Shown one piece after another: positions 4,779-44,062 of a DNA stretch of 64,000 nucleotides; position 1 is the stretch's first letter, and every line of letters starts with the position of its first letter. The notes under the pieces are model-generated. The model saw only the letters and a program-made list of their open reading frames with translations. It searched no databases and was not told the DNA's origin. Source of the DNA: Gammaproteobacteria bacterium (lineage in GTDB: Bacteria; Pseudomonadota; Gammaproteobacteria; Natronospirales; REEB76); NCBI GenBank assembly GCA_049591455.1, contig JBAWFA010000015.1, positions 75,143-139,142 of the forward strand, in the 5' to 3' direction. A program made the position numbers and the translations under genes.

Positions 4779-4805
4779 TTTTTTTGCATAGGCATATATA
4801 AAAAC

Positions 4806-4829: not shown

Positions 4830-4948
4830 TTTCCGCTGAATTAATGCTGCCGGCAATACACGGGCCGGTCGCGATTTGACAGGCAATTGCCCGCATGCGA
4901 TGGCGGTATGATCCCGCGAAACTGGATTCAACCGACTCCATGCGCCAG

Positions 4949-5771: not shown

Positions 5772-6740
5772 TCACCCCCTCGGATGGTGCTGGGCGTGCA
5801 GGTCTTTCAGGCGTTCACGGGCCACGTGAGTATAGATTTGGGTGGTGGATACGTCGCTATGGCCCAGCAGCATCTGCACCACCCGCAAATCCGCGCCGTG
5901 ATTAAGCAGGTGAGTGGCAAACGCATGCCGCAAGGTGTGGGGCGACATGGCCGCGCGGATTCCGGCCTTCTGGGCATAACGCTTGATGATGTGCCAAAAC
6001 GCCTGGCGCGTCATGTGCTCACTGCGGCGCGTGGGAAACAGATAATCGCTTTGCTGTGTCCCGATGATCTCGAGGCGCGTTTCGCGCAGATACTTCTCAA
6101 CCCAGGTCTGGGCCTCCTCGCCCATGGGCACCAGCCGCTCGCGGTTGCCTTTGCCGAGCACGCGCACCACGCCCTGGCGCAGGTTCACCTGATCAAGACG
6201 CAGACTCACTAATTCCGATACGCGCAAACCTGTGGCATACAGCAGTTCCAGCATGGCGCGGTCACGCACACCGAGCGCTTTCTCGACATCCGGTGCCTTC
6301 AGCAGGGACAGCACTTCGGTTTCAGTTAGTGATTTCGGTAGCGGCCGGCCAAGTTTCGGCATGTCTATGCGCGTGCTCGGATCCTCACTGATGTGCCCCT
6401 CACGCTGCATGTAGCGATAAAAGCGCCGGATGCTGGACAACTGCCGGGCGGTGGAGCGTGGCCGCGCGCCATGTTGTACGCGCCAAGCGATGAAAGCCAG
6501 CAAGTGCTCGCGCCCTGCATTGAGCAGTCCCACGCCCTGCCCGTCAAGCCAGCGGCCCAAACTCAACAGATCTGCGCGATAGGCGGCAAGCGTGTTGTTC
6601 GCCAGCCCGCGTTCACTCCACATGGCGTCCAAAAAGCGTTCCACATCCCGTGCACTTGCCGTCGGAAGAGGGGGTGCCATTTCCCGGCTGTTAGGGGCTG
6701 GGGTGTTTACTTTGCTTACATATTCACTCATTGGGACCAC
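5772..6740 (-). CDS. xerD: Site-specific tyrosine recombinase XerD
   Basis: FLDAMWSERGLANNTLAAYRADLLSL at the N-terminus. C-terminal catalytic residues HTLRHAFATHLL...LGHSDVSTTQIYTHV. The true start may be the internal Met (MAPPLP..., about 6680). Confidence 0.85.
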   Translation of the reverse strand: MVPMSEYVSKVNTPAPNSREMAPPLPTASARDVERFLDAMWSERGLANNTLAAYRADLLSLGRWLDGQGVGLLNAGREHLLAFIAWRVQHGARPRSTARQLSSIRRFYRYMQREGHISEDPSTRIDMPKLGRPLPKSLTETEVLSLLKAPDVEKALGVRDRAMLELLYATGLRVSELVSLRLDQVNLRQGVVRVLGKGNRERLVPMGEEAQTWVEKYLRETRLEIIGTQQSDYLFPTRRSEHMTRQAFWHIIKRYAQKAGIRAAMSPHTLRHAFATHLLNHGADLRVVQMLLGHSDVSTTQIYTHVARERLKDLHAQHHPRG

Positions 6741-6908: not shown

Positions 6909-7676
6909 ATGAAATACCCCCCCTCCCGGCTTTATTCCCTGATTTTTGCCCTGCGGGCCTGGACCGCCTTCTTGCTGTACTTTTTGCCTGCAGCCCTCTT
7001 TGTCATTGCCCTGCCGGGCCGGGAACGCCGTCGCCGGGCAGCCCACCGGGCCGCCAGAGCGCTTTTTTACCTGGCCGGAATCCCCCTGCGGGTCGTTGGC
7101 CTGGAGCTCCTGCCTCCCGGCTCCTGTTTCCTGGCTTCCAACCACGCCACCTATCTGGACGGTCCCCTGCTGACCGCAGCCCTGCCGCCGCGATTCGGGT
7201 TCGTGATCAAGCGGGAAGCCATGAAAGCACCCTTGGTGGGATGGCTGCTGGTGCGTCTCGGTTCGGAATTCGTAGAGCGTTTTAATACCAGGGCAGCGCT
7301 CAGCGACGCTACCCGCCTGATCCAGTTGGCGCGGGACGGTGTATCGCTCGGCGTGTTTCCGGAAGGCACGTTCCGACCCGAACCGGGGCTGCGCTCCTTT
7401 CATCTGGGCGCGTTCCTGGCGGCCACCCGTGCCGGCATCCCCGTGGTGCCGGTAGTAATCCGCGGAGCACGCGACATTTTACCGGGTGAAACTCCCTGGC
7501 CGCACCCGGGACGGGTGGAAGTGGAATTGCTGGCGCCGATCATGGCCGCCGGTAAGCGCGGCGATGATGCGCGAACGCTGCGCGATAAAGTGCGCGCGAG
7601 CATCCTCGCCCATTGCAGCGAGGCCGAGCGACTCAACGCTCAGCCGCAACATCGGCAGTCAAAAGATTCACTCTGA
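6909..7676 (+). CDS. Lysophospholipid (1-acyl-sn-glycerol-3-phosphate) acyltransferase family protein
   Basis: 255 aa with an N-terminal TM segment, the NHATYLD (HX4D) motif and FPEGT motif of the PlsC family. Confidence 0.75.
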   Translation: MKYPPSRLYSLIFALRAWTAFLLYFLPAALFVIALPGRERRRRAAHRAARALFYLAGIPLRVVGLELLPPGSCFLASNHATYLDGPLLTAALPPRFGFVIKREAMKAPLVGWLLVRLGSEFVERFNTRAALSDATRLIQLARDGVSLGVFPEGTFRPEPGLRSFHLGAFLAATRAGIPVVPVVIRGARDILPGETPWPHPGRVEVELLAPIMAAGKRGDDARTLRDKVRASILAHCSEAERLNAQPQHRQSKDSL

Positions 7677-17273: not shown

Positions 17274-18341
17274 CTAATCATTGACATAGACAAACTTCGG
17301 GTCCTTCAGATACATCTCGAGATTCGTGGGGTGGTAATTTGAGTCCTGCCTGTCGAAACGGGCTTTTACCGATTCGTGGATGCCCTGGTTGGTATTGGGA
17401 GCAGGTAGCGGCTGCTTAAGGACGATCTTGCGGACACCAGCGCCAAACCAGCTGAGTACCTTGAACACGCCCGTCACAGAATTGTGCAATACATCGAAAG
17501 GATTCGGTTTCGGACATTGTTGCTGGTCCAGTCTCAGTCCCGCTTGCTCCGCCCGCCGCCACATCCAGGCGAGTGTGTCGTTGGACAAGCCGTCTTCTTT
17601 GTAACCCCCGCCCACATCGCAATGCACGCCCGCGAACCAGGCTTGTTCCAGCACTTGCGTCGCCGGTGCATCCACCTGCTGGGTCCATATACACGGCACG
17701 AAGGTACTGCGGCGTTCGTCCACTGCCAGCGCCTGATAGGCGTAATGCGTGAAGGTACTCAGGTCCGTGTCGTGGAAACGTTCCACCAGCGCTTCCACGC
17801 GCGTGTCGGGGATACCTAAAGAACCTACCGTGTCCCAAACGCCGATGAAATGGATAATGAAATCGTGTGGCTCCGCGAATTCCGGCCATGAATAGGCCTG
17901 GCGGTAATTGCGCGAATGCACCGCGCGCGGATGAGTCTCCAGTCCACGACTGATATATAAAGCGTAAGCTTCCTTGATACGGCTGTAATTTTCCGGCCGC
18001 AGAATGCCAGCACTGCGTATCAGCCCCGAGAGGCTGCGCACCGTGTAGGCGCCGCGGCTGAAACCGAACAGATATAGCTTGTCACCCGGCTGGTAATTCA
18101 GTACCAAGTAGCCGTAGAGATCCTGGACGTTTTCGCTCAGACCCGCGCCGGTGGCACCACTCAGCACACGCCACGCTTGCATACCTTCCGAACCCAGTCC
18201 GATCTGGTAGCAGGAGAGTTGTGGATTACCAGACGCATCCTGCGGCAACAGCGCCGCCTGAAGTTTGACTACATTGGTGGGATTGGCGGCTTCATTGCTC
18301 TCCCAGGTACCGTCCGCAAAAATCGCGATATTTCTGGCCAT
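17274..18341 (-). CDS. DUF2235 (Tle1-like alpha/beta hydrolase) domain protein
   Basis: MARNIAIFADGTW...NPTNVVKL...YLFGFSRGAYTVRSL (GxSxG nucleophile elbow)...HCDVGGGY, the canonical DUF2235 motifs. Confidence 0.7.
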   Translation of the reverse strand: MARNIAIFADGTWESNEAANPTNVVKLQAALLPQDASGNPQLSCYQIGLGSEGMQAWRVLSGATGAGLSENVQDLYGYLVLNYQPGDKLYLFGFSRGAYTVRSLSGLIRSAGILRPENYSRIKEAYALYISRGLETHPRAVHSRNYRQAYSWPEFAEPHDFIIHFIGVWDTVGSLGIPDTRVEALVERFHDTDLSTFTHYAYQALAVDERRSTFVPCIWTQQVDAPATQVLEQAWFAGVHCDVGGGYKEDGLSNDTLAWMWRRAEQAGLRLDQQQCPKPNPFDVLHNSVTGVFKVLSWFGAGVRKIVLKQPLPAPNTNQGIHESVKARFDRQDSNYHPTNLEMYLKDPKFVYVND

Positions 18342-22330: not shown

Positions 22331-23218
22331 AGATTTACATCGCCCATCGAGAGAAGCGCGGGAGCGAACATGCCAAAGCATCTTGAAGCAAATCGTAGCC
22401 TGAACTACCCCCTATTATTCCGGATGCTGGCAGGAGTATTTAGCTGTATGCACGGATACCAATTTCAGGCCGTCTTTATACTGACTTGCGCGTTAAGCGC
22501 CTGCGGCTCCAGGCCGCCTCGCGGCACACCACCGCCAAACTTGTACGCCACGACGTCCTACTGGATGAATCCGTATTGGCAAGCGGAGATGTTAACTGCC
22601 ATGCAGTCCGTGGTGCGCCTCCCTGCCAATGCGTCTAGTTCGGCCACACCCCGAATTTATGGAACGCTGAAGTTCCTGTTCGATAACGGGGCCATCAAAG
22701 ATCCGGTGATCGTCACCAGCACGGGCGACCCCGCGCTGGATAAGCTGCTGCTTCAGCAGGTGGTTACGGCGAAGGTACCCAAACCCTTCGGAGCTCATAC
22801 CGACCAAGCCCATGAATTCGAGTTACGGCTCGAGATGTTTACACCGTATGAGACGTTCGAGTACGACTTGAATGCAGCTATAGACAGCAAGAAAGGCTAT
22901 ACCAGGGATGCAATCTTGAAAGGAAACATGGGAATCACGACCGTGGATTTCGACTATCTGGATGGCAAAGCGCTCAATATTGCAGTCGCCAAATCCAGCG
23001 GGCATAAGGATTTGGATCAAATTTCCATCGACACCATATCCGGCGCTATCCTGCCGCCACCGCCTCCAGGTTATGCGGGTAAAACTGTACATATGCAGTT
23101 GATCTTCTGTTACGACATCGTTACTTCCTTCAACCAGCCCGGTAAATGTCCGGTGGGGGGAAATATCATCAGCGTGGAAGGCGCCCGGATTAAGCGTACT
23201 AGCGTAGTTCGTTATTAA
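22307..23218 (+). CDS. Lipoprotein with two TonB-C-terminal-like domains; start uncertain
   Basis: Lipobox ILTCALSACGS. GTLKFLFDNGAIKDPVIVTSTGDPALDKLLLQQV and TTVDFDYLDGKALNIAVAKSSGHKDLDQISIDTI resemble TonB_C folds. The real start is probably an internal Met (MPKH... or MLAG...). Confidence 0.5.
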   Translation: MPMVYPYVRFTSPIERSAGANMPKHLEANRSLNYPLLFRMLAGVFSCMHGYQFQAVFILTCALSACGSRPPRGTPPPNLYATTSYWMNPYWQAEMLTAMQSVVRLPANASSSATPRIYGTLKFLFDNGAIKDPVIVTSTGDPALDKLLLQQVVTAKVPKPFGAHTDQAHEFELRLEMFTPYETFEYDLNAAIDSKKGYTRDAILKGNMGITTVDFDYLDGKALNIAVAKSSGHKDLDQISIDTISGAILPPPPPGYAGKTVHMQLIFCYDIVTSFNQPGKCPVGGNIISVEGARIKRTSVVRY

Positions 23219-23230
23219 CGTCGCACTGAC

Positions 23231-23319
23231 GTGCGGTGATATCTATCGAAAGATTCGCTGGAGCGGCGATACGAAAGCTTCATGCGATAAACCGTGGTCT
23301 GCCTGTATTGCTATTATCG
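23231..23319 (+). repeat. HNH-3'-end-derived repeat, copy A
   Basis: ATCGAAAGATTCGCTGGAGCGGCGATACGAAAGCTTCATGCGATAAACCGTGGTCTGCCTGTATTGCTATT aligns with 32414-32484. In frame it reads LSKDSLERRYESFMR*. Confidence 0.8.
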
Positions 23320-24326: not shown

Positions 24327-24330
24327 TGGC

Positions 24331-24428
24331 TGAAGGAAGTGGATGCACCAATGCTGAAATATGAATTGCAGGTACTGCAAAATTCTGAATTGGTTTTCCT
24401 TTTCGGGCTACGGATCGGCCATCAAAAG
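24331..24428 (+). repeat. HNH-3'-end-derived repeat, copy B
   Basis: Translates EVDAPMLKYELQVLQNSEL, versus EVDGPMLKYGLQALHNSEL of the intact gene (32325-32420). It carries CGG (about 24416-24418) where the intact gene has TGA. Confidence 0.8.
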
Positions 24429-31548: not shown

Positions 31549-32412
31549 ATGCCGGAACAAAAGTGGGATACCAAGGTCAGGCTGAGAGCCTTCCAGTGGC
31601 TGGACCACGTATCACCAGCACATGAGGATATTTTACCCAGAGCGGTACTACAGGATGGCTTTGAGCTGGGTGGGCAGCGAATCCATTTGATGTCGCCCCA
31701 AGGCATTTTTACCCCGCAAGGCTGCGATTACCCAATATCCATCACCACCGTCATGAACGGCCCGTACCCTGATCGATTCGAGGATGTCCATCGCCTCTCC
31801 TATCGGTATCGGGGCACAGACCCGAATCACCGCGACAATGTCGGACTACGCAACGCTATGCGTAATGACATACCGCTGGTGTATTTCTTTGCCGTGGCTC
31901 AAGGCCGCTATCAGGCTATCAAGCCGGTTTATGTAACCGGCGATGATCCAATGCGTTTAACATTCACGATCATGGCGGATGTAACAAGGACGTTTGAGAG
32001 CGCAATCGCACTAGAGTCAACAGTTGCCGATCCCGTACGCACAGAGCTGCGGCGCCAATACGCGACTGCGGCCGTGCAAGTCAGATTACATCAGGCTTCT
32101 TTCCGGGAACGGGTGCTGGATGCCTATCGGACCCACTGCGCCATGTGCCGACTCAAGCATCGGGAATTGTTGGATGCGGCGCATATCATCCCTGACGCTG
32201 ACCCCGGCGGGCATCCAGAAGTCTTTAATGGTCTCTCCTTATGCAAGATTCATCATGCCGCCTTTGATCGTAGGATCATCGGCATCCGGCCAGACTACGT
32301 GATCGAAGTGCGAGAAGACGTACTTAAAGAAGTGGATGGACCTATGCTGAAATATGGATTGCAGGCGCTGCATAATTCAGAATTGCTTTTGCCTTCCAGA
32401 TCTGCGGATTGA
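31549..32412 (+). CDS. SRA/PUA-like N-terminal domain + HNH nuclease (COG3440-type putative type IV restriction endonuclease). It ends at a TGA 16 codons before the ancestral stop (TAA 32458-32460).
   Basis: HNH core CAMCRLKHRELLDAAHIIPDADPGGHPEVFNGLSLCKIHHAAFD. N-terminal YRYRGTDPNHRDNVGLRNAMRNDIPLVYFF pattern. After TGA 32410-32412 the frame continues PSKDALERRYHSFVR*, which is conserved in repeat copies A and E. Confidence 0.75.
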   Translation: MPEQKWDTKVRLRAFQWLDHVSPAHEDILPRAVLQDGFELGGQRIHLMSPQGIFTPQGCDYPISITTVMNGPYPDRFEDVHRLSYRYRGTDPNHRDNVGLRNAMRNDIPLVYFFAVAQGRYQAIKPVYVTGDDPMRLTFTIMADVTRTFESAIALESTVADPVRTELRRQYATAAVQVRLHQASFRERVLDAYRTHCAMCRLKHRELLDAAHIIPDADPGGHPEVFNGLSLCKIHHAAFDRRIIGIRPDYVIEVREDVLKEVDGPMLKYGLQALHNSELLLPSRSAD

Positions 32413-32484
32413 CCATCGAAAGATGCGCTGGAGCGAAGATATCACAGCTTCGTGCGATAAATCGTAGCCTGTTCCCTATTACTC
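32325..32484 (+). repeat. HNH-3'-end repeat, master copy D (native 3' end of the gene + ~25-nt tail)
   Basis: Reference sequence to which copies A, B, C, E, F and G align. Confidence 0.8.
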
Positions 32485-32494
32485 TATTTATTTC

Positions 32495-33010
32495 TTATCT
32501 CCGCATTGACCCCGACAAACAACCGAGAATATCTTTGCCAGACTCATAGCCGTTGCATGTCTCGAAATAACTAGCGTTTGCCGGAAGAACACCTTCATGC
32601 GCAAAACTGTTTCGCTAGACAATTACATTACCATAAGAAGATTTAACACTAATTTTTTTAGAAACTAGAGACTTCTTCTCACATTTTTCAAGTGACTCAG
32701 AAAGTCTTCTTACATATTTTTCACCAAATTTTTTAACATGAAGTTCCTTTAGATCATTTAAGGATATTCGGCCATTAATGCGATCAAACACGCTACCACA
32801 ATATATGCCAAACGATTTGTGTTTTTTTTCAGCGAATGAAATGAATATATCCTTAATGCACAGTTCTAAAACGGTAACGACTGATACGCATAGAAACCCG
32901 ACGTAGTGATTGCGCAAAAAAGGATCGGCGAGCCCAGGTATAACTGTATCAAGATGAATAATAAGCCGATCTAGTGGTTCGAAACGGTCGGTATACACAA
33001 CCGTATTCAC
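32495..33010 (-). pseudogene. HEPN-family (RiboL-PSP/MAE_28990-like) nuclease gene interrupted by in-frame TAG at 32615-32617
   Basis: ORF 32615-33010 ends ...SSYGNVIV*. The same frame continues RNSFAHEGVLPANASYFETCNGYESGKDILGCLSGSMRR* to TAA 32495-32497, so the Rx4H catalytic motif lies immediately after the stop. GTGA start/stop overlap with the DUF262 gene. Confidence 0.65.
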
Positions 33011-34086
33011 TCGATTAGATGACTTTTCGCCGCCTTGAATCTTTCCTTCACAACAGCAACGTCGCTGGTACTATATAAAGTAGCTTCGTTAAATTTTTCA
33101 TCCTTTACAAGATCAGAGTATCTAGTACCAAGATTAGCAGGTATCTTGCGTCTATTCATAAGAATAGTTGCAAGTACCGAATCAAGTGCTGACACATTTA
33201 GACGACCGCCTCTCAAGTGAAATGGCTTTTCTGGTAAGTACTGAACCGTTTTAGCACATATCTCTGGAAATGCTTTAGAGAATTCAATCGCCTCTTTTGT
33301 GTCCCCAGATTGATGATTAAGCATCGCATTATTTAAAAACTCCTTCATCGGCTTCTCATATTTTTCAAATCCATAAGTAAGAGCAAAAATACGGAGTACA
33401 AGCTCTACATCTTTCTGGTGCCGATCAAAAGTATTTTTACCAACTAACTTTCTCCAGTTCTTATCTTGATTAGCTTTTCGCAAAACATTGACGATTCCAC
33501 CACGAAAGACACAATTTCGAATTTCCTGTGGCTTTAATGGAGTTCCGCCAGTATTTAATCTTTCGAAGATATGATAAATGCTTGTTTTTTCGCCTTTAGG
33601 ATTCATCTGCCTAATATTGATAGCGCGTAATACAGCCCCCTTCAATTTGCGCTGGTCACTTTCACCAAGGTCAGCAAAAGATTTTTTCGAGAATGGGCTC
33701 TTGTCACTAAGTCCTAAAAGACGAAATACTTGCTTCTTTCCTTGTATTGACTCTTCTCCAAAATACCCATCCATGAAATATACAATGGACATCATTCTTT
33801 AAAGGCCATCAATTACCAAACTGCGATTTTCATCGTCAACGTATAGGAACATCTGCGGTACAGGTAATCCCATCAAGAAAGATTCAATTAACAAGGACGA
33901 CTGATATATTGTCCATACAAAGTTTCTCTGAAAATCAGGGACGATCAAATCGCCTGAATGCCACATACTATGAATCCCACTCAATGTAAGATCTGACGGG
34001 TATGCGGTAATATCATATGGAACATATGGCTCATCGTCCTGCGCTTCTTCGACAACGCTTAGCTCATCTTCTTGGACTTGACTCAT
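33007..34086 (-). pseudogene. DUF262 (ParB-like nuclease/NTPase, GmrS-type) gene interrupted by in-frame TAA at 33799-33801
   Basis: ORFs 33799-34086 and 33007-33795 are in the same frame, separated by TAA + AGA. The junction reads VIDGL*RMMSIVYF, where the family signature is DGQQR. Upstream is VPDFQRNFVW, the DUF262 motif. Confidence 0.75.
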
Positions 34087-34164: not shown

Positions 34165-34242
34165 TTATTCATTGCTCACCTGGTCCATCGAGTCGTACTT
34201 CACCGTTTCTATCAGTAAATAAAGATATTCATGCGATCGCGT
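34165..34242 (-). pseudogene. Decayed icmF 3'-end-like fragment (F2)
   Basis: The minus strand reads ...LLIETVKYDSMDQVSNE*, versus icmF ...[17 protein letters not shown]... DNA similarity starts at the shared GCGATCGCA, the same point where the F1/icmF homology ends. Confidence 0.45.
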
Positions 34243-34272
34243 GGGACCTTCTGATACGCTGCCCATTTAGGG

Positions 34273-34405
34273 TCAGGGATGTTGGATTGATCCGTAAACG
34301 ATGGCAAACATTATTCCGCCGAAGATGCAAAGTATGTAGGCCGCGATCACGACGATGGCGAATATCCCCATGTACTTCCACGGGGATTTCTGATGCCGGA
34401 GCGCG
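34273..34405 (-). pseudogene. Displaced 3'-end fragment of the 4-TM membrane-protein gene 35221-35661
   Basis: Translates (M)EDALRHQKSPWKYMGIFAIVVIAAYILCIFGGIMFAIVYGSIQHP*, versus intact EDALKHQKSFWKYLGIFAIVMIVAYIVIIIGGIAFAVIYGLGHHP*. About 75% nt identity by eye. Confidence 0.8.
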
Positions 34406-34429
34406 TCTTCCATGTCCCAAGCTATATAC

Positions 34430-35212
34430 TCATTTGCAACCTAGTTTACGCCACGTGGCCAGGTCATTCTTCTTCGCGGCAGCCAGGCATTCATCGCTGA
34501 GGTCAGTCTCCTCCTTCTTCGCTGCGTTTTGGCTCGCGGCTTCTTCAGCGCGCATTTTATCCATTAGCTGTTGCTTGGCTGACATCTGTTCCGCATACCA
34601 ATCATCATCTCCGCAATATCTTACATCTTCTGCATCATCCACTGCCTGAAGATTCTGCTCGGCGACTGCGATATCGGCTTTCGTTCCGCCCTTCTTTGCA
34701 ACCTTCAGGGCTGCTTTCATAGCATCTTCTTGCGCTGATAACGCAGCACACTTGGTTTGATGCACATGCAAGGCCGTGGTGAAATTAGCCGCGTCCTCGG
34801 GTACGTAAATGGCGAGCCCCGTGACGGAACCACGGATAATCGGCACAGAAGCACCAAAGGCGTAACCACCGTAATCATTGCTATTCCAAGTTGCTGTACT
34901 GATGGAGCCGGATGTGACGGTGCCAGCTGATTGCAAAAGGACACCGGTGGCGCCTGCATCCATGGCTTCTTCTTTAATACCCTCCAAGGCATTTTCCATC
35001 TTGCTTTCATCACTGAATCCACGGCCTTTTCCAGTGACCATGCCTATCACTTCATAGTGAGCTGGTGGCGAGAAATAGAGATATACGTTCTCCCAGTTAT
35101 CTATGACAGGTTGTCTCTCCTGCCCCTGCTCGACGATAGTTCCAGAACTGCACCCAGCCAAGAGAATCAGGAAACCACAGAAGACCCAAGTCTTCATGCT
35201 CTTAGTATTCAT
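34430..35212 (-). CDS. Lipoprotein, hypothetical
   Basis: Start moved to MNTKSMKTWVFCGFLILLAGCSSG (lipobox LLAGC). N-terminal globular part, C-terminal charged coiled-coil-like part. 8-nt gap after the upstream gene. Confidence 0.6.
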   Translation of the reverse strand: MNTKSMKTWVFCGFLILLAGCSSGTIVEQGQERQPVIDNWENVYLYFSPPAHYEVIGMVTGKGRGFSDESKMENALEGIKEEAMDAGATGVLLQSAGTVTSGSISTATWNSNDYGGYAFGASVPIIRGSVTGLAIYVPEDAANFTTALHVHQTKCAALSAQEDAMKAALKVAKKGGTKADIAVAEQNLQAVDDAEDVRYCGDDDWYAEQMSAKQQLMDKMRAEEAASQNAAKKEETDLSDECLAAAKKNDLATWRKLGCK

Positions 35213-35220
35213 CACTGCCT

Positions 35221-35661
35221 TCAAGGATGATGGCCCAATCCATAAATAACGGCAAAAGCTATTCCGCCGATGATGATAACGATATATGCCACGATCATAA
35301 CAATCGCGAATATTCCCAAATACTTCCAAAAGGATTTCTGGTGCTTGAGGGCATCTTCAAGCGCGGCCTGCCCGGACGCCGGGATGCGTGTAATGGCATT
35401 GCCATAGCGCATCAGATACAGGCAGGGAATCAGATAAAAGAAAACCGCCATCAGGATATAAAGAATCCCAAAGACAGGGCCGAAAACCGGCGACAGTCCG
35501 GATCGCGCAGGCATGGCAGAGAAGCCCGCGAACATGACCAGTCCGGCGAGCACCATGAACGCCATCACTACGAACCCCAGGATCGCGAGAAATTTCACCC
35601 ACGGACGCGTGGCATTCAAGGCGTCCAGCATGTCATCTGAAACTACGATTTGCTCGGCCAT
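35221..35661 (-). CDS. Small polytopic (about 4 TM) membrane protein, hypothetical
   Basis: 146 aa. WVKFLAILGFVVMAFMVLAGLVMF..., FGILYILMAVFFYLIPCLYLMRY..., C-terminal FWKYLGIFAIVMIVAYIVIIIGGIAFAVIYGL. Confidence 0.6.
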   Translation of the reverse strand: MAEQIVVSDDMLDALNATRPWVKFLAILGFVVMAFMVLAGLVMFAGFSAMPARSGLSPVFGPVFGILYILMAVFFYLIPCLYLMRYGNAITRIPASGQAALEDALKHQKSFWKYLGIFAIVMIVAYIVIIIGGIAFAVIYGLGHHP

Positions 35662-35876: not shown

Positions 35877-38800
35877 TTATGGAGGCGAACTTTTGCCATC
35901 GCTCTCGCCGGCACCTCCCACAAGCGGGAATATATTCTCGCGGACAAGCGTTTGATTGAATTGCGGCAGATCACTCTGCATCAGAGTTTGGTACTGCGCC
36001 CTGGCATCGCCCAGCCTCTGGTCGAGCAGCTGAAGGACCTGGATCGTCGCGTCGGTCGGGGGATAACCCGGATCGCCGTACACATCACCGGCACCGGTAC
36101 CCAATTCGCCGTTCAGCCAGATCAGGTGGAGGTACAGGCCGTAGTGGGCAAGGTAGCTTTTTTCGTCGCTGTTGGCGAGCGCCGGCGATAGCAGTTTGTT
36201 TTCCAGATCCTGGATCTTCTTGTCCATGTCCTTGATCGCCTGCAACGTTTTGCTGTGTGCGGATTTTTTATCGGCTTTCAGCATCGCCTCCACCGTCTGG
36301 AGTTGCTTCCGCAGCCACTCTGCCTGGTTCACCATGGCGGTTACGCTGGAAATATCACCCTGGATATGCAGCAGCAGCTTGACTCTGGCTTCGGTCTGCG
36401 CGGGTGTTTCCGGCGAGCGCGGGCTGGCCAGCACTTTGAATGTCTGGTCGTAGGTTTTGCCAGCGACCGTCACGCGCGCGGTGTAGGTGCCGGGCGCGAC
36501 CAGCGGACCGACTTCCGCTTCCTTGATGCCCCAGTGGGTGATCGGCCGCGAATCCTTGCCCATGAATCGCAACGCGTCCCAGACATGCGGATTCGTCGTG
36601 GGCGTGGTCCGCAGCATGATCAGTTTCGGTGGTGCATAACGGAGATCCCAGTACACGCGATTGATGCCCGTGTGTACCTGCGCATCGGGGTCATGCGCCC
36701 AGTGTCCCTCCTTATATGTGGGGTTGAGTCCCGGCTTCTTTTCGTCCGCGACGAGCTTGAGCTCGCGCACCACCTTCCCGTCCGCATCCAGTATGGCGAC
36801 CTTGATGCCCGCCGTGGCCTTCTCCTCTTTTAGCTTTTTCTCATTTTCCTCATCGTCTTTGCTGTTCGTGGTTTCCTTCACCTTGGGTACGGAGTCAAGC
36901 CAGAAGGCAATGAAGGCATGCGCGCCATTGAAGAAGCGATACGCCGGCCGCGACTTGAAAACCCGGACCGGCGCAGTGGCGCCGCTGTTTGCCAAGCGTT
37001 CCAGCGGACTGATGTCTTCCAGCACGTAGATGCCGCGCCCGTACGTGGAAACCACCAGATCGTGGAACGGCTTCTGCACCGTTTCCCAGGAGACCGGCGC
37101 ATGCGGCAGGCCCGCTTGTAACGGCATCCAGTTTCCACCCGCGTCAAACGAAACATACAACGCGTTGCCGGTCCCGGCGAAAAGCAGGTTCTTGTTGTAC
37201 GGATCCTGCGCCACCGAGCTCACATTGCTTGTGGGGCTGACCGGAATGCCATGCACGATGAGCTTCCAGCTTTGTCCGAAGTTCGTGGTTTCGTAAATAT
37301 ACGGCTTGCTATCGCCCATCAGGGCAAGGTCCACCGCGATATAAGCGGTCCCGGCATCGAAGTGCGAGGGTTCTATGCGGCTGACCGTTCCCCATGGCGG
37401 TAAGTTGGGGATGTTCTTGGTAACGTTGGTCCAATGGCCACCGGCATCGCGCGTCAACCAGATTTGTCCATCGTTCGTACCCGCCCAGATCAGCCCTTTC
37501 TGCACCGATGAGGGCGCAATGGCGAATACAAGCTCACCGTAGAATTGCCCCAAGTTGTCCTGCCGGCGTATTTTGCCCTTGTCCGGGATGCCACCCGATG
37601 GCACGAGATATTTGGGATTGTGCGTTGAAAGGTCGGGGCTGATCACGCTCCAGCTCTGGCCGCCATTTGTCGTCTTGAAAATCACCTGACAACCGTAATA
37701 CACGGTGTTGTGGTCGAACGGATCGATTGCCAAGGGTGGCGTCCAATGGCAACGGTATTTCAGATCCTCCGGGGGCGAATCAAGCGAATGCAGGGGCCAC
37801 GGGCTTACCGCCCGTGGATAACCGACCTTGGTGTCGAGGCGGGTGATCTCATTCCCGTAGCACGTGCTCCAGATGATGTCGGCATCGGTCGGATCCGGAT
37901 AAGTGAAGCCGGATTCACACCCGCCCAGCGGTTCCTGCCAGCCGGCATTGAGCTCCCCGATGCCGCCAAGCAGCGGCGTGGAGTCCGGATAAGCCGGCCC
38001 GCGTTCGGCGTCGTCATCCTGCATGTTGGTATACACCCAATAGGGCACCTGGTTGTCGACGGCCACGTGATACATCTGGCCGATAGGCAGCGTCACGTGA
38101 TGCCAGTTTTCGCCGCCGGTGGTGCTGATTTCAACCCCGCCGTCATCGCTGATCATGATCCGATTGGAGTTGCTTGGATCGAACCAGATATCGTGGTTGT
38201 CACCGCCCCAGTGCTTTTCCTGGAATGTTTTGCCCCCGTCCCCGGACACATAGAAGCCGTTGCTGGCCACGAAGATTTTGTCTTCGTCTGTCGGAGAGAC
38301 GGCGAGACGCACGCAATAGCCGGCGCGTTCCGTCAGCAGCCGGCTATAGTTCTCGACATTCCAATGCTTGCCGCCGTCGTCGGAACGCCACAGTGAACCC
38401 TGTTGCGCGGTCTCGATGAGGGCGTACACGCGGTCGGGATTGGACGGCGCGATGGCCACATCAATTTTGCCGAGGGGCGCGTCCGGCAGGCCGTGGTCCT
38501 TGATTTGCTTCCAGGTGTTACCACCATCATGCGAAACATAAACGCCACTTGACGGGCCGCCGCTGGTCATCGCCCAGGGGCGAATCATCCACTGCCACAT
38601 GCCGGCAAACAGAATGTGCGGATCTTGCGGGTCCATTGCCAGGCCGGAACAGCCAGTGTTGCCGCTGACGAACAGTGTGTGCTTCCAGGTCTTGCCGGCG
38701 TCGTCGGTGCGCCACACACCGCGGGACTGCTCCGGACGCGTGCCCGTACCCATGGCGCAAACGAAAATGTTTTGCGAATCATGGGGGTTGACCACGATGC

Positions 38801-39251
38801 GGGCAATCAGCCCTGTGTCATCCAAACCCATATGCGTCCAGTTGCGGCCGCCGTCGCTCGACTTGTAAACACCGTCGCCTGGCGTAATGCCATTGCGGAT
38901 CACCCAGGGTTCGCCGGTGCCGACCCAGATCACCGAATGCTGGTTCGGATCGACCGCCAGGGCGCCAATCGACTGCACTGGTTGCTTGTCGAAAATCGGT
39001 TTGAACTTATAGCCGCCATCGGTCGATTTCCAGACACCACCGGAGGCGGCACCGATGTAATAGACGTTCGGATCGCCGGGAACGCCGACCACAGCGCTCG
39101 CGCGGTTGCCGCGATCCGGACCGACGAAGCGGAATCGAAGCGACGTGAGATCCTTGGCAGTGACGTCGTGGGTCCCGGCAGCGCGCGGCGCACCGGCGAT
39201 CGCCAACAGGAAAAGTAGGACCAACCACGTCATGGATACTCGGGCTTTCAT
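35877..39251 (-). CDS. Large secreted BNR/Asp-box repeat (sortilin/VPS10-like beta-propeller) protein
   Basis: 1124 aa with a signal peptide and at least 10 SxDxGxTW-type boxes (STDGGYKF, SSDGGRNW, TDDAGKTW, SHDGGNTW, SDDGGKHW, SGDGGKTF, TTNGGQSW, TRDAGGHW, TTNFGQSW, SFDAGGNW). Confidence 0.8.
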   Translation of the reverse strand: MKARVSMTWLVLLFLLAIAGAPRAAGTHDVTAKDLTSLRFRFVGPDRGNRASAVVGVPGDPNVYYIGAASGGVWKSTDGGYKFKPIFDKQPVQSIGALAVDPNQHSVIWVGTGEPWVIRNGITPGDGVYKSSDGGRNWTHMGLDDTGLIARIVVNPHDSQNIFVCAMGTGTRPEQSRGVWRTDDAGKTWKHTLFVSGNTGCSGLAMDPQDPHILFAGMWQWMIRPWAMTSGGPSSGVYVSHDGGNTWKQIKDHGLPDAPLGKIDVAIAPSNPDRVYALIETAQQGSLWRSDDGGKHWNVENYSRLLTERAGYCVRLAVSPTDEDKIFVASNGFYVSGDGGKTFQEKHWGGDNHDIWFDPSNSNRIMISDDGGVEISTTGGENWHHVTLPIGQMYHVAVDNQVPYWVYTNMQDDDAERGPAYPDSTPLLGGIGELNAGWQEPLGGCESGFTYPDPTDADIIWSTCYGNEITRLDTKVGYPRAVSPWPLHSLDSPPEDLKYRCHWTPPLAIDPFDHNTVYYGCQVIFKTTNGGQSWSVISPDLSTHNPKYLVPSGGIPDKGKIRRQDNLGQFYGELVFAIAPSSVQKGLIWAGTNDGQIWLTRDAGGHWTNVTKNIPNLPPWGTVSRIEPSHFDAGTAYIAVDLALMGDSKPYIYETTNFGQSWKLIVHGIPVSPTSNVSSVAQDPYNKNLLFAGTGNALYVSFDAGGNWMPLQAGLPHAPVSWETVQKPFHDLVVSTYGRGIYVLEDISPLERLANSGATAPVRVFKSRPAYRFFNGAHAFIAFWLDSVPKVKETTNSKDDEENEKKLKEEKATAGIKVAILDADGKVVRELKLVADEKKPGLNPTYKEGHWAHDPDAQVHTGINRVYWDLRYAPPKLIMLRTTPTTNPHVWDALRFMGKDSRPITHWGIKEAEVGPLVAPGTYTARVTVAGKTYDQTFKVLASPRSPETPAQTEARVKLLLHIQGDISSVTAMVNQAEWLRKQLQTVEAMLKADKKSAHSKTLQAIKDMDKKIQDLENKLLSPALANSDEKSYLAHYGLYLHLIWLNGELGTGAGDVYGDPGYPPTDATIQVLQLLDQRLGDARAQYQTLMQSDLPQFNQTLVRENIFPLVGGAGESDGKSSPP

Positions 39252-39525
39252 CTGAGTCTCTCCTTCGAAGCGTTTAGCAGTTTGTTGAAATATACTTTTG
39301 ATTTTCCACTGATCTTGGTTTGAGAGGTATCACGAATCAGTGGCGACACACTTGCGATTGCCCATATCGAGATCTCCGCTAGCAAACCCGCATCACTCAA
39401 TCGAATCTGACCCTATTAATCTTGATCTAGTTCACATTGGAACCTGAGCAGTGCCTTTGACAGCCAATTGATGAAGCTGGCTGAACGCGTTGCTGTAATC
39501 ACCAACCCGTTCAACCGACCATGAG

Positions 39526-39643
39526 CTACATGTTCCTTCGGTATTCCCCGCCCACTTCATACAGCGCATGACTGATCTGCCCTGGCGTGTTGTACTTCAC
39601 CGCTTCCATCAACGAAGTGAGGATGTTCTTGGGGTCGCGGGCG
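39526..39643 (-). pseudogene. Displaced icmF 3'-end fragment (F1; 38 codons + stop)
   Basis: Translates [39 protein letters not shown], versus the intact icmF end [38 protein letters not shown]. About 80% nt identity, with differences mostly at third codon positions. Confidence 0.85.
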
Positions 39644-39644
39644 A

Positions 39645-39842
39645 CTACAATCTGAATACCCGGTATTTTTCCGGTGGCCGCGCTGGCCATTTCGGGCACA
39701 GGGCTTCGACAACCTCCATGAGGTCCACCCAGTCGGACAAATCCAATTTGGCTGGCAAGGATGTCTTCATGACAGCGTTCCCAACCAGCGGATGGCTATC
39801 CCGGTCAGTCATTGTCATTCGCGATTTCGGCAAGCCACTCAT
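39645..39842 (-). CDS. Small hypothetical protein (65 aa), third gene of the NTase cassette
   Basis: MSGLPKSRMTMTDRDSHPLVGN...DWVDLMEVVEALCPKWPARPPEKYRVFRL. Its ATG overlaps the upstream stop (ATGA). Its stop abuts fragment F1. Confidence 0.4.
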   Translation of the reverse strand: MSGLPKSRMTMTDRDSHPLVGNAVMKTSLPAKLDLSDWVDLMEVVEALCPKWPARPPEKYRVFRL

Positions 39843-40027
39843 CTGTTGTCTACTGGTGGAACGGGTTCCCGTAACTGCTTGATAACACCCGAGCGCCATG
39901 CGAAATCCAGCATGTCCTCAAACGATCGAATCTTGTCGTCAGTGGTCATGCGGATACCATCCAACAAATGGTTATGCTCTGCATCTTCGAACGTACACTT
40001 CAGATCACTTTGGCTTTCAGATTTCAC
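39839..40027 (-). CDS. Small hypothetical protein (62 aa), second gene of the NTase cassette
   Basis: (GTG start) KSESQSDLKCTFEDAEHNHLLDGIRMTTDDKIRSFEDMLDFAWRSGV. The start overlaps the NTase stop. Confidence 0.4.
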   Translation of the reverse strand: MKSESQSDLKCTFEDAEHNHLLDGIRMTTDDKIRSFEDMLDFAWRSGVIKQLREPVPPVDNR

Positions 40028-40542
40028 TATGCTCGACCTTCACTGTAGGACATCTGGCGCTGTATTTCCCGCAATTTCTCAATGTCGTCCTCGTCCCGTA
40101 CACGATGTGTACCGCTCTTCATTTCTATCAAATGGGCAATACTGGCTACCCTGATTGGTACGCCATCATAGACCTTGACAATCGAGTCATGCCACAAGTC
40201 CGTGAATTTCACAGGTTCGTGCACGAAAACATCTATGGATCGCTGAGCATTCTTGGGATCCCAGAGCTGGAAAACCATCATATGCTTGTTTCGGTACCAA
40301 TCCTCACGCTTCTTGGGATCGGCAAAATCCTGCATGACGACCGGCAGGCGCGGCTTGAGTCCGATGCTCTCCAGGGTTTCGAGTGCCTTCCTGCAATTCA
40401 CCGGGTCCAGATCAATCACGAGATCCAAGTCCTGGGTCAAGCGAATGTGGCCATGCAATATGACCGCCAATCCGCCCACAACCACGTAACGCACCTGCGC
40501 CTTGTCCAAGGCGGTAAAAATTTCATGCACGTTAAAGGCCAT
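40027..40542 (-). CDS. Minimal nucleotidyltransferase-fold protein (AbiEii/MNT-like)
   Basis: Start moved to MAFNVHEIFTALDKAQVRYVVVGGLAVILHGHIRLTQDLDLVIDLD (G[GS]x9-13DxD NTase motif). The listed longer ORF would overlap icmF. Confidence 0.65.
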   Translation of the reverse strand: MAFNVHEIFTALDKAQVRYVVVGGLAVILHGHIRLTQDLDLVIDLDPVNCRKALETLESIGLKPRLPVVMQDFADPKKREDWYRNKHMMVFQLWDPKNAQRSIDVFVHEPVKFTDLWHDSIVKVYDGVPIRVASIAHLIEMKSGTHRVRDEDDIEKLREIQRQMSYSEGRA

Positions 40543-40570
40543 ACTTTTTGATCGCCCAGTTACTTTCGTG

Positions 40571-43500
40571 CTACATATTCCTTCTATATTCGCCACCAAC
40601 TTCATACAGTGCATGGGATATCTGCCCCAGCGAGTTGTACTTCACTGCTTGCATCAACGAGGTGAAAATATTTTTGCGATCGCGGGCAGTTTGCTGCAGC
40701 AGTTTGAGGCTGTCTGTCCCGCGTGAATTACGCGCCTCACGATAGCTCTCCACGTTCTCGATTTGTTTGCGCTTCTCGCCCTCGGTGGAACGGATCAGCT
40801 CGATCTTGGTGACGATATCGCCGGCGTGTTCCTTGGGCAGGAAGGTGTTGACGCCCACCAGCGGCAACGAACCGTCGTGCTTCTTCTGTTCGTAGTACAG
40901 GCTTTCTTCCTGGATCTTGCCGCGCTGGTACATGGTGTCCATAGCGCCCAGCACGCCGCCGCGCTCGGAAATGGACTCGAACTCCTTATATACCGCCTCC
41001 TCCACCAGGTCCGTGAGCTGTTCGATGACGAAGCTACCCTGCCAGGGGTTCTCGTTGAAGTTCAGCCCCAGCTCGCGGTTGATGATGAGCTGGATGGCCA
41101 CGGCGCGGCGCACGCTCTCTTCAGTGGGCGTGGTGATGGCTTCATCATAGGCGTTGGTGTGCAGGCTGTTGCAGTTATCAAACAGCGCATACAAAGCCTG
41201 CAAGGTGGTACGGATATCGTTGAACTGGATTTCCTGGGCATGCAGCGAACGGCCGGAAGTCTGGATGTGGTATTTCATCATCTGGCTGCGGGCCGAGGCG
41301 CCGTAGCGTTCACGCATGGCGCGCGCCCAGATACGCCGCGCCACCCGGCCGATGACGCTGTACTCCGGGTCCATGCCATTCGAAAAGAAGAACGAAAGGT
41401 TGGGCGCGAAGTCGTCGATCTTCATACCGCGTGCCAGGTAATACTCCACAATGGTGAAGCCGTTACTGAGCGTGAAGGCGAGCTGCGAAATGGGGTTCGC
41501 GCCGGCTTCGGCGATATGATAGCCGGAAATGGATACCGAATAGAAGTTGCGGACCTTGTGGTCCACGAAATATTGCTGGATGTCACCCATCATGCGCAGC
41601 GCGAACTCGGTAGAGAAGATGCAGGTGTTCTGAGCCTGATCCTCTTTCAGGATGTCTGCCTGCACGGTGCCGCGCACTTTGTGCAGCGTCTCGGCCTTGA
41701 TGCGCGCGTAGGTTTCTGCGTCCACCACTTCGTCACTGGTGACGCCCAGCAATCCCAAGCCCAGACCATCGTTACCTTCCGGCAGTTCGCCGGCGTACTG
41801 CGGACGCGGTTTGTCTCTATATATAGAGGCAACTTTCTTTTCGGCCGCTTCCCAGCGCTTTGTGTCTTCCTTGAAATACTTCTCCACCTGCTGATCAATC
41901 GCCGTGTTCATGAACATGGCCAGGATCATGGGCGCGGGGCCGTTGATGGTCATGGACACGGAGGTCTTGGGGTCGCACAGATCAAAGCCCGAGTAGAGCT
42001 TCTTCATGTCGTTGAGGCTGGCGATACTGACACCCGAATTGCCCACCTTGCCGTAGATATCCGGACGCTCCGCCGGGTCTTCGCCGTAGAGTGTGACGGA
42101 ATCAAAGGCGGTGGAAAGTCGTGCCGAATCCTGGCCGTGGGAGAGGTAATGGAAGCGGCGGTTGGTGCGCTCCGGCGTGCCTTCGCCCGCGAACATGCGC
42201 GTCGGGTCTTCGCCGATGCGGCGGTAAGGATACACGCCCGCAGTGTAGGGATAGGCGCCCGGCAGGTTCTCGCGCATCAGAAAGCGCAGCAGGTCCGCCC
42301 AACTTTTGTACACGGGCGGTGCAATCTTCGGCACCTTGGTGCGGCTCAGGGATTCAGTGTAGTTGCTGCCCTGGATGGCTTTGCCGCGCACTTCATAGGT
42401 GTAATGCTCGTCGGTAATGCTTTTCAGACGCTGCGGCCATTCACGCAACAGATGCAGGACTTCAGTGGAGAGTTCCTTGACGGCTTCGTTGTAGCGCTGG
42501 CGCAGCACAATCAAAGAAGAATCGGTTCCTGAATCTGATATGGGCTGGACCCCGGCTTTTGCCGGGATGGCGGCGTGCAAATCATTTGATTCATACAAGT
42601 CCAGCGGCTTTCGCAGGCCCGGATCGTTGAGATCACGCAGAACTTCATAGAAATGCTGGGCGCGACCGGCCGTCTCTGCCTGCCGGTCAATGTCCTGGTT
42701 AATGCCGCGGCCCTGTTCGGAAATCTCGGCGAGATAGCGCACGCGCGCGCCGGGGATCAGCACCGTGGCGCGTGGTTCCTTGATGGAAACATCCACCTGT
42801 GGCGTCCACTTGTCCGCCGGCAAATGTAATTTTTCTCGCAGCAGCCGGCACAGGTTCACGAACATCCAGGTGATACCGGGGTCATTGAACTGGCTGGCGA
42901 TGGTGGGATATACAGGTACATCTTCGTCCTTGAGTTTGAAGGCGGTGCGATTGCGCTTCCATTGTTTTTTGACGTCGCGCAGCGCGTCATCGGCGCCGCG
43001 GCGGTCGAACTTGTTGAGCACCACCAGTTCCGCGTAATCCAGCATGTCAATTTTTTCGAGCTGACTGGCCGCGCCGTAGTCGCTGGTCATCACGTAGCTG
43101 GAAAAATCCACCATGTCCACGATCTCGGAATCGCTTTGACCGATGCCCGCGGTCTCAACGAGAATCAAGTCATAGCCCTGGCCACGCAAAAAATGGATGC
43201 AGTCCTTGAGCATTTCGTTGGTGGCAGCGTGCAGGCGGCGCGTAGCCATGGAGCGCATGAATACGTGCTTGTTACGCAGCGCGTTCATGCGAATGCGGTC
43301 ACCCAGCAGTGCGCCGCCGGTGCGGCGGCGCGTGGGGTCCACCGCCAGCACCGCGACACGCATCTGCGGAAATGCATGCAGGAAGCGCAACAGCAGTTCG
43401 TCCACCACCGAGGACTTGCCCGCGCCGCCGGTGCCAGTGACGCCCACCACCGGCACTTTCTTGCCGGCGAGATCCCATTGCTTGCGCAACCGTGTCAGCT

Positions 43501-44062
43501 CGGTGTCGCCGATGATCCCCGCTTCGATGGCGGTGAGCATGCGCCCTACGGAGATTTCGTCGTCGGTTGAAACTTTCGCGGGCTTTTGTGGTTCCAGCCG
43601 GTGCTTCTGTACCCGCTCCACCACGTCCTCAATCATCTGGGACAGGCCCATGTGCATGCCGTCATTGGGGTGATAGATGCGCTCCACGCCGTACGCCTGG
43701 AGTTCAGCGATTTCTTCCGGGGTGATGGTGCCGCCGCCGCCGCCGAACACGCGGATGTGGGCCGCGCCGCGCTCGCGTAGCATGTCCACCATGTATTTGA
43801 AGTATTCGAGATGACCACCCTGGTAGGAGCTGATGGCGATGGCGTCCGCGTCTTCCTGCAGAGCCGCGCGCACCACGTCTTCCACCGAGCGGTTATGGCC
43901 AAGGTGCACCACTTCCGCGCCCTGGCTCTGAATGATGCGGCGCATGATGTTGATGGCCGCGTCGTGGCCGTCGAACAGCGAGGCTGCCGTCACGAAGCGC
44001 AACGGCAGTTTGACCGGATGTGGTACCTGAGCTTCGCGGGGATTGGGGACGACAGTGCTCAT
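40571..44062 (-). CDS. icmF: Fused isobutyryl-CoA mutase IcmF (B12-binding domain + MeaB-like GTPase + mutase barrel)
   Basis: 1163 aa. N-terminal B12 domain ([16 protein letters not shown]), P-loop [10 protein letters not shown]-terminal acyl-CoA mutase domain. Confidence 0.9.
42544..42573. repeat. Type-1 REP palindrome embedded in frame inside icmF
   Basis: GCTGGACCCCGGCTTTTGCCGGGATGGCGG on the plus strand. On the coding strand it encodes [11 protein letters not shown] in the segment between the GTPase and mutase domains. Confidence 0.7.

Follow-up and report, generated by a model that had tools for sequence, protein, structure and literature searches.

How does the end of a conserved metabolic gene come to be present twice, once in the working gene and once more behind a set of small genes that follows it, at a locus with no integrase nearby? 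The question is raised by icmF in a 64,000-nucleotide stretch of contig JBAWFA010000015.1 (assembly GCA_049591455.1, positions 75,143 to 139,142) from a gammaproteobacterium of the Natronospirales, which was analyzed as a whole and is referred to here as the window; all positions given for this DNA are window positions. An earlier note had described a single three-gene cassette inserted at the icmF stop codon, with the old icmF tail left behind, and had compared it with the integration of e14 and phage 21 at icd. In those elements, the copy borne by the element completes the gene, the original end comes to lie beyond the insert, and the two copies differ mainly at synonymous positions. With slightly more confidence than doubt, we interpret the locus as one instance of an integrase-free cassette array that is anchored on the last ~40 codons of icmF and exchanges its cassettes by homologous recombination.

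Structure of the icmF end

The array is anchored on icmF (40571-44062, minus strand), an open reading frame (ORF) of 1,163 aa that encodes a fused isobutyryl-CoA mutase/MeaB GTPase. Its orthologues contain B12-binding, MeaB, and MM_CoA_mutase Pfam domains, and plasmid records carrying the same tail are annotated as IcmF. The working tail (the last 38 codons and the stop; 40571-40688, minus strand) has a foreign, cassette-like composition. Twenty-eight nt past the icmF stop begins the gene for a DUF6036 nucleotidyltransferase (NTase; 40027-40542, minus strand; 171 aa), a MenT1-like putative toxin that begins with MAFNV, at the position where its homologues all begin. The GTG start of the next gene, p62 (39839-40027, minus strand; 62 aa), overlaps the NTase stop (ATAGTGA); its product is a conserved partner of the NTase and a putative short antitoxin. 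The ATG of p65 (39645-39842, minus strand; 65 aa) in turn overlaps the preceding TGA, and p65 occurs elsewhere as the downstream partner of F20, an NTase of the AbiEii/NTP_transf_5 type.

The second copy of the icmF end (pseudo-tail 2, here the old tail; 39526-39643, minus strand) begins 2 nt after the p65 stop and comprises 38 codons and a stop with the reading frame intact. A repeat search returned the two tails as a pair of 118 nt with 81% identity at an offset of 1045, the longest repeat in the surrounding 10 kb, where all others measured ≤34 nt. The icmF end, the three overlapping small genes, and the 118-nt copy are all located as first described. As an independent assembly from an unrelated sequencing run (Logan SRR28024125, L177) is 100% identical over positions 38403-40934, mis-assembly is excluded. 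No promoter- or terminator-like site was found between icmF and the old tail, so both cargo modules are probably read through from icmF.

Divergence of the tails and foreign origin of the working end

Compared codon by codon, the working and old tails share 33 of 38 residues, and not 31 as had been counted before. They differ by 16 synonymous and 7 non-synonymous changes (a ratio of non-synonymous to synonymous substitution [dN/dS] of 0.06 by Nei-Gojobori counting), i.e., at 64% of synonymous versus 8% of non-synonymous sites, when neutral change in this pair would be expected to be 22% synonymous (p = 1.5e-6). The longest identical run shared by the two tails is 12 nt. These data support the proposal of the earlier note that the tails diverged as parts of functional genes, and point to purifying selection.

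The GC content at third codon positions (GC3) falls from 0.82 in the body of icmF to 0.56 in its working tail; the three small genes range from 0.52 to 0.67, and the old tail, at 0.77, is host-like. Likewise, third-position identity to the closest relatives lies at 0.6 to 0.9 along icmF and falls to 0.2 to 0.45 in the last 50 to 90 codons, across which amino acid identity remains at 0.8 to 0.9. At codons for identical amino acids, identity between the window and the related locus L004 drops from 0.71 in the body to 0.44 over the final 50 codons (p = 5e-4). The old tail resembles the working tail of another relative, L178, with a single difference across its final 54 nt, yet the two icmF bodies reach only 0.65 at third positions. 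GC3 and third-position identity thus bear out the suspicion that a foreign segment provides the working icmF end and that the earlier end was displaced downstream.

Cassette arrays at icmF in relatives and other phyla

All NTases at least ~50% identical to that of the window, from ~25 metagenomic loci and several metagenome-assembled genomes (MAGs), are encoded 18 to 30 nt after an icmF tail, and more distant ones were never found behind such a tail. NTase and IcmF identities are roughly congruent (in a global alignment in which three loci aligned badly). The NTase-p62 pair thus has an ancient and nearly constant association with icmF in the clade and is not a recent one-off arrival.

The cargo behind icmF varies between relatives. 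In L004, icmF is followed by a DUF4160/DUF2442 pair, a tail, and NTase-p62; in L007, by NTase-p62-p65, a tail, a 220-aa gene, and a second tail. The locus L099 has five tails and carries, after icmF, VapBC, NTase-p62, a tail, F20 with p65 and a membrane protein, a tail, DUF4160/DUF2442, a tail, a methyltransferase with an endonuclease, and a last tail. Modules of the L099 type occur in other orders in L178 and L181, and a tail directly follows p62 in L098, L099, L100, and L144. Cassette genes start 1 to 30 nt past a tail stop and end 0 to 6 nt before the next tail. Between L097 and L099, which represent populations with 93% identity, the differences are whole cassettes bounded by tails, and L178 and L099, which are close by their icmF bodies (0.92), carry radically different arrays.

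A scan for the IcmF C terminus, with one genome per species, returned 80 loci. About 69 of the 80 surveyed species have a single icmF tail and ordinary metabolic neighbors. Pseudo-tails were present in a Lysobacter MAG (L017) and in Oleiagrimonas (L023), in Kapaibacterium (L065) with restriction-modification cargo, in a Flavobacteriales MAG (L075) with eight icmF tails in 5.8 kb, and in "Ca. Leptovillus" (L080) with PhD/PIN cargo. The arrays therefore span three phylum-level groups (Gammaproteobacteria, Bacteroidota, and Chloroflexota), and their tails are lineage specific. Other cargo found directly past the icmF stop includes HigA-like and ParB-like proteins and membrane proteins, and among 92 ORFs downstream of icmF, Pfam identified AccI and XhoI endonucleases, DNA methylases, Mrr, GmrSD, HNH, and AbiEii. 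Comparison of icmF loci, which the earlier note had proposed as a check, consequently reveals relatives in which the site is empty and others in which it carries different cargo.

Several further observations were made on these tails. In the Lysobacter MAG, the icmF 3' end and downstream DNA are simply duplicated in tandem (579 bp) at positions 10030-11190 of L017, with no cargo, an arrangement that could be a starting state of such arrays or the product of a different process. The icmF tail at 10463-10598 of L055 is apparently frameshifted (...SLGSIITCAL* in one frame, with the tail continuing in the next) and may be either a genuine pseudogene or the product of an indel in the assembly. Sequences resembling repetitive extragenic palindromes (GTAGGAGCG...CGCGA; translated as VGAVVPAA and similar) lie in frame in the variable linker that immediately precedes the conserved icmF tail (L099, ~4100-4170; L144, ~4800-4860; L097, ~1750-1800) and were copied into a long pseudo-tail, L099#3. 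Array-associated tails use the codons GAA TAY MGA AGR AAY ATG, which contain a Shine-Dalgarno-like AGAAGGA, even at a genome GC3 of 0.85 to 0.9, and relatives with empty sites have CGS CGS codons in their place. Together with cassette genes that start 1 to 5 nt past a tail stop, these codons suggest translational coupling.

Composition of a cassette unit

One block that runs from within the working tail (its final 85 nt) through the spacer and the NTase gene to p62 (40656-39870) aligns, at 83% identity, with positions 5847-6673 of L004, where the tail of this block is a displaced pseudo-tail behind the newer DUF4160/DUF2442 insertion. Similarly, p65 and the old tail (39843-39528) align as a single block with L181. 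The former block would suggest that a tail travels with the genes that follow it and the latter that it travels with those that precede it. Both are reconciled if the unit is the 3' part of the upstream tail, the genes, and the 5' part of the downstream tail, with crossovers within the tail; this arrangement fits the alignments.

In the Flavobacteriales array L075, four pseudo-tails behind different cargo share a 2-nt deletion. Three of them (4900-4989, 6150-6250, and 7430-7523) also share a 17-nt palindromic insertion (TCCCGGCTCGCAGGCCGGGA); the fourth, near 2910, has the deletion only. The frameshifted 5' halves are shared, and the last ~25 nt differ only at synonymous positions. Non-functional half-tails accordingly propagate with cassettes in this array. 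Pairwise identity of the 84- to 117-nt tails was too noisy and mosaic to assign tails to cargo, and a comparison of tails and cargo for DUF4160/DUF2442 in L004 versus L099 was not decisive, as the cargo is highly diverged.

The nucleotidyltransferase and its small partners

The NTase was assigned to Pfam DUF6036 (E = 4.7e-9) and has 363 homologues, among which R34, T36, D38, D40, K142, R147, D150, and D153 are invariant. A protein with a 99% match to the NTase (P0001) could not be placed on any contig. The best Protein Data Bank matches of its AlphaFold model (predicted local distance difference test [pLDDT] score, 89) in Foldseek were 8an5 and 8an4, i.e., MenT1 of Mycobacterium tuberculosis (E = 3e-6; template modeling [TM] score, 0.64 to 0.67), followed by LnuA, TM1012, and ANT(2'')-Ia. 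The family profile also matches MenT1 by sequence (E = 2e-6) with the T-x-D and K...D motifs aligned: RxTxDLDLV falls on RFTRDVDIVV and AHLIAxK...RDxDD on AHLIAMK...QDRSD. The family counterparts aligned with the catalytic and phospho-acceptor residues of MenT1 (T39, D41, K137, and D152) are all invariant. Membership in DUF1814/AbiEii was not found by profile, as Pfam returned DUF6036 and PADLOC gave AbiEii only at E = 0.007. A literature search found no paper that mentions DUF6036.

The p62 gene always follows the NTase gene in relatives, and its product forms a conserved family with 26 invariant columns and a predicted fold of one short and one long helix (pLDDT, 70). The p65 product is likewise a conserved 65-aa family, so that conservation of the small ORFs, which the note had left to be checked, holds for both. 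MenT1 extends tRNA acceptor ends and is blocked by the 68-aa MenA1 (PMC10435456). By analogy, NTase and p62 may be a MenAT1-like toxin-antitoxin pair with reversed gene order, in which p62 would neutralize the NTase as MenA1 does MenT1. The likeness to MenAT1 and to AbiEii/DUF1814 toxins lies in the NTase fold, the aligned motifs, and a very short adjacent partner (62 versus 68 aa). However, the NTase of the window belongs to DUF6036 and not to DUF1814, shares only ~16% identity, and is encoded first. The earlier description of the cargo as toxin-antitoxin-like agrees with this match; its label "of unassigned type" can be narrowed, since the NTase matches MenT1 in both fold and catalytic motifs.

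The three small genes do not, however, form a single cassette as had been supposed. Pairs of F20 (an NTase of ~179 aa that matches AbiEii/NTP_transf_5) and p65 occur in L020, L026, L099, and L181 to L183, and the homology of the window to these loci begins exactly at the p65 ATG; F20 and its preceding tail are absent. The cargo of the window is therefore composite, with the NTase-p62 module fused to the orphan p65 of a lost F20 NTase. Two other settings for the NTase were considered and rejected: it is absent from viral contigs, and an NTase-partner pair located away from icmF in L012 to L014 is not a tail-flanked unit, as no gene-tail repeats flank it.

Search for a recombinase and a recombination site

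No recombinase domain was detected in the three cassette proteins, and Pfam returned no recombinase in the 16 kb beyond the cassette or in the Pfam-marked gene neighborhoods of relatives. Among the 25 most common Pfam families listed in each survey, Phage_integrase was present neither in the 92 ORFs downstream of icmF at array loci nor in 113 ORFs at single-tail loci. The only tyrosine recombinase of the window is the housekeeping XerD (5775-6740, minus strand), 33 kb from the array and with no evident link to it. The earlier remark that no integrase is present holds in this sense. Eight tails folded as single-stranded DNA, on one or both strands, gave no attC-like fold (z-scores, -1.4 to +1.3), and no dif-like site was found in the tails, in which the best match to the 28-mer of Escherichia coli dif (13 to 14 of 28 positions) was no better than in shuffled sequences. 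Hijacking of Xer/dif, as by integrative mobile elements exploiting Xer (IMEX) or pdif modules, was rejected on the lack of a dif-like site and the housekeeping nature of XerD.

A carrier phage or plasmid was also rejected, as no phage record with an icmF tail was found and the plasmid matches are full icmF genes. No second icmF tail was found in the viral collection. One 34-kb predicted viral contig of very high GC content (L095, IMGVR_UViG_3300027896_000128) opens with the last 52 icmF codons (positions 1-159), followed by phage-like ORFs; no integrase and no second tail were found within the 10 kb read.

The left boundaries of pseudo-tails range from about codon -22 to beyond codon -110, counted from the icmF end. 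Apparent breakpoints vary from codon -28 to -8 and are poorly resolved, being blurred by a variable six-fold Ser codon near -15. When L178 and L099 are compared, synonymous identity drops from 0.92 in the icmF body to 0.76 over the final 200 codons (p = 1e-8), a stretch that begins well upstream of the duplicated 40 codons, and synonymous divergence beside arrays is raised up to 600 nt inside icmF. Imported tracts thus extend into the gene itself.

A third tail and a second gene with the same architecture

The old tail is real but is not the last one in the window. A window-wide repeat search found a decayed pseudo-tail 3 (34170-34243, minus strand) 5.3 kb beyond it, of which only the 5' half, with a 1-nt deletion, is recognizable; it gives a weak tblastn match (QKVPRDRMNIF) and can be aligned with other tails. 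The earlier picture of one insertion with one relic accordingly widens to an array of a widespread type. Between pseudo-tails 2 and 3 lie a Sortilin/BNR-repeat protein gene (35877-39251, minus strand; 1,124 aa; Pfam Sortilin-Vps10 and BNR), which is absent at the corresponding position in L099 and L178, and a gene for a 146-aa membrane protein (35221-35661, minus strand), orthologues of which adjoin icmF tails in L097, L099, and L178.

The membrane protein gene has itself undergone the same kind of end replacement. Its last 138 nt (35221-35358) are 74% identical, at a spacing of 948, to a displaced old end of 46 codons (34273-34410, minus strand), and the two copies flank a lipoprotein gene (34430-35212, minus strand; called as an ORF with a signal peptide/Cys motif) for which no homologue was found in any related locus compared. 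The duplicated ends show a dN/dS of 0.19 (p = 7e-4), and the displaced copy is closer by eye, not by computation, to the C terminus of the L099 orthologue than the working end is. The working end of the membrane protein gene is a replacement that arrived with the lipoprotein gene. A tail-replacing insertion at a second gene suggests that the principle may be general and reach beyond icmF. Members of the membrane protein family also form tandem runs of three to five paralogues downstream of icmF arrays (L001, 10086-12312; L181, 2519-3991), and the run in L001 includes a 37-residue C-terminal fragment.

Proposed mechanism of cassette exchange

A unit of the proposed exchange would consist of the 3' part of a tail, a short spacer, one compact addiction or defense module in the orientation of icmF, and the 5' part of the next tail. 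An array would be founded when a donor icmF end with a neighboring gene is joined to a recipient, on the left by homologous recombination and on the right by a homology-facilitated illegitimate join inside the last ~120 nt of the recipient gene. Thereafter, a donor segment from another lineage (icmF 3' region, module, and pseudo-tail) could recombine with the resident chromosome, with one crossover within icmF and the other between the donor pseudo-tail and the resident working tail. The resident icmF would remain intact but end in foreign sequence, a new module would follow it, and its former end would persist farther downstream as a pseudo-tail. The duplicated tail would serve as a portable right-hand homology arm through which modules enter naive or occupied icmF loci by double crossover, so no integrase would be needed. 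Recombination between tails would delete, swap, and reorder modules. Replacement of a resident addiction module would presumably be penalized, which would favor growth of the arrays over turnover. Insertion with long target duplication without an integrase has precedent, mostly in naturally competent species (PMC2853133). Homologous recombination is preferred to recombination at a fixed site because imports reach far upstream, boundaries and breakpoints vary, and an unrelated gene shares the geometry.

Several points weigh against this interpretation. The mechanism is read from comparisons of sequence and not from the recombination chemistry itself. Tails of 80 to 120 nt with ~80% identity are poor RecA substrates. 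The left boundaries, for all their range, are concentrated at codons -38 to -42 for at least four types of cargo, and L075 has the same non-functional "adapter" half-tail repeatedly behind cargo of different kinds; both would also fit a dedicated site-specific system. The Ser codon near -15 blurs the estimates of breakpoints, and the divergence inside icmF could stem from separate recombination events hitchhiking beside a selected locus. With the survey of recombinases confined to the 25 most common Pfam families, a single weak integrase match could be hidden. The congruence of NTase and IcmF identities may mean that much of the history of the module was vertical. Finally, the hosts are uncultured, and their natural competence is only presumed.

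The alternative to be taken most seriously, even if we regard it as unlikely, is a dedicated site-specific recombinase encoded elsewhere, acting on cis-mobilizable or integron-like cassettes with the icmF tail as both the attachment site and the site borne by the cassette. Compact, promoterless cassettes in one orientation, 1 to 30 nt after a tail stop and 0 to 6 nt before the next tail, are what such a system would leave, as are left boundaries that recur behind different cargo and identical half-tails with a palindromic insertion behind the different cargo of L075. Moreover, the tandem accretion of integrase-less elements at a gene 3' end is known (PMC5704250). In contrast, no recombinase of the families listed lies in or next to ~35 cassette-bearing loci or in the 113 ORFs at single-tail loci, the window has XerD only and its tails lack a dif-like site, and the tails do not fold. 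Variable boundaries and apparent breakpoints, imported sequence up to 600 nt upstream of the tail, the same architecture at a membrane protein gene, and lineage-specific tails in three phyla also speak against one dedicated site. Considerably less probable is a graveyard of integrase-bearing prophages or islands that entered successively at an attB in the icmF tail, in the style of e14 at icd, and decayed to an addiction module and an att remnant. The geometry of tail replacement is exactly that of such elements, addiction modules resist deletion, and the viral contig L095 starts with an icmF tail followed by phage-like ORFs. However, the cassettes abut the tails precisely and retain whole operons, and the same small modules recur in different orders. 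Furthermore, none of the ~100 icmF loci showed an intact integrase-bearing element of the families listed, no phage or plasmid record has an isolated icmF tail, and the viral collection has no second tail. The comparison with e14 and icd made in the earlier note consequently stands for the geometry, in which the insert lies between two copies of the gene end, the proximal one of which completes the gene; the integrase-mediated mechanism that it implied is probably wrong.

Purely local events, i.e., tandem duplication of the icmF end beside vertically inherited neighbors with no horizontal input, are very improbable. The 579-bp duplication in L017 is of this kind, and the broad congruence of NTase and IcmF identities would be expected of it. 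Nevertheless, local duplication is hard to square with tails that differ at most of their synonymous and few of their non-synonymous sites, with the foreign composition of the working tail, with a synonymous identity to relatives that collapses only at the gene end, or with the radically different arrays of L178 and L099. An artifact or another repeat system, such as a chimeric assembly or a diversity-generating retroelement, can be given almost no credence. On the surface, a near-repeat of ~118 nt that lies at a gene 3' end and again 1 kb downstream looks like a variable/template pair. However, no reverse transcriptase was found in the cassette proteins or in the next 16 kb, and the substitutions are not adenine specific; the independent assembly is identical, and dozens of independent loci share the layout. 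Both possibilities are refuted by these results.

Neighboring genes

Just past the array, Pfam identified a split GmrSD-like gene (33007-34086, minus strand), a RiboL-PSP HEPN gene (32615-33010, minus strand), and an HNH gene (31549-32412, plus strand), families that recur downstream of icmF in relatives (L178 and L181). A 64-nt element is present three times (22339-22402, 23238-23301, and 32408-32471), flanking a TonB_C ORF and following the HNH stop, and the last 73 nt of the HNH gene (32323-32395) have an 84%-identical copy 8 kb away (24330-24402). Both could be further cassette boundaries or relics of gene ends. A gene for a Tle1-like phospholipase effector of a type VI secretion system (17277-18341, minus strand) shows no evident link to the array.

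Relation to known systems and implications

Insertion with long target duplication of restriction-modification units was reportedly described by Nobusato and colleagues in 2000. The icmF cassettes resemble such insertions (Furuta, Abe, and Kobayashi, 2010; PMC2853133) in that a selfish module lies between direct repeats of tens to hundreds of bp, genomes with empty sites have a single copy, and neither a transposase nor an integrase is present; restriction-modification pairs, moreover, are among the icmF cargo (L065 and L099). The window shows a repeat above 30 bp (118 nt), an insert below 20 kb, single-tail loci in ~69 of 80 species, and no mobility genes. In contrast to those insertions, its cargo is NTase/toxin-antitoxin-like and not restriction-modification, what is repeated is the end of a conserved coding sequence, the upstream copy being foreign, and the repeats are 81% identical rather than nearly identical. 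The icmF insertions are also serial, with up to eight repeats and mostly toxin-antitoxin cargo, and use the same site in three phyla.

The likeness to e14 at icd extends to the mainly synonymous differences between copies, but the icmF units lack an integrase and phage genes, measure 0.4 to 2.5 kb, and form serial arrays with variable boundaries. Like the cis-mobilizable elements (CIMEs) and tandem accretions of the ICESt1 family (PMC5704250), they are integrase-less units bounded by repeats and stacked in tandem. CIMEs, however, are decayed integrative and conjugative or integrative and mobilizable elements that coexist with integrase-bearing relatives at the site, none of which was found at icmF among the families listed (92 and 113 ORFs), and the icmF units are compact operons, not remnants. 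Chromosomal integrons share compact, promoterless, toxin-antitoxin-rich cassettes in one orientation, a repeat between cassettes, and a site apparently split between cassette ends. The icmF arrays, on the other hand, have neither intI nor attI, and their repeat is a coding tail without an attC fold. Integrase-free exchange of cargo by homologous recombination in conserved flanks is known from the minimal mobile elements of Neisseria (PMC3787668). There, two different genes form the flanks, whereas at icmF the right flank is a traveling duplicated fragment of the left-hand gene.

The icmF arrays thus extend known kinds of insertion, namely, insertion with long target duplication and tandem accretion; icmF as an insertion site was not found in the literature. 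A bolder reading, which we offer tentatively and consider possible rather than probable, is that the icmF 3' end is the recombination site of a hitherto unrecognized integron-like platform that has neither an integron integrase nor attC. Split-tail cassettes would be captured, excised, and shuffled on it by host homologous recombination or by a recombinase yet to be identified, and it would hold a stockpile of toxin-antitoxin, restriction-modification, and defense modules in at least three phyla.

Mobile cargo can be flagged easily by computation from its pseudo-tails, and the arrays point to candidate toxin-antitoxin pairs, namely, the DUF6036 NTase with p62 and the AbiEii-like NTase with p65. 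If the proposed exchange is correct, the coding end of a conserved gene would act as a portable homology arm for the knock-in of selfish or defensive modules, leaving the gene undamaged and requiring neither an integrase nor a transposase. Cassette arrays would then arise by a third route, in addition to integrons and the tandem accretion of integrative elements, and insertion with long target duplication, so far a matter of isolated restriction-modification cases, would gain a recurrent hotspot that crosses phyla.

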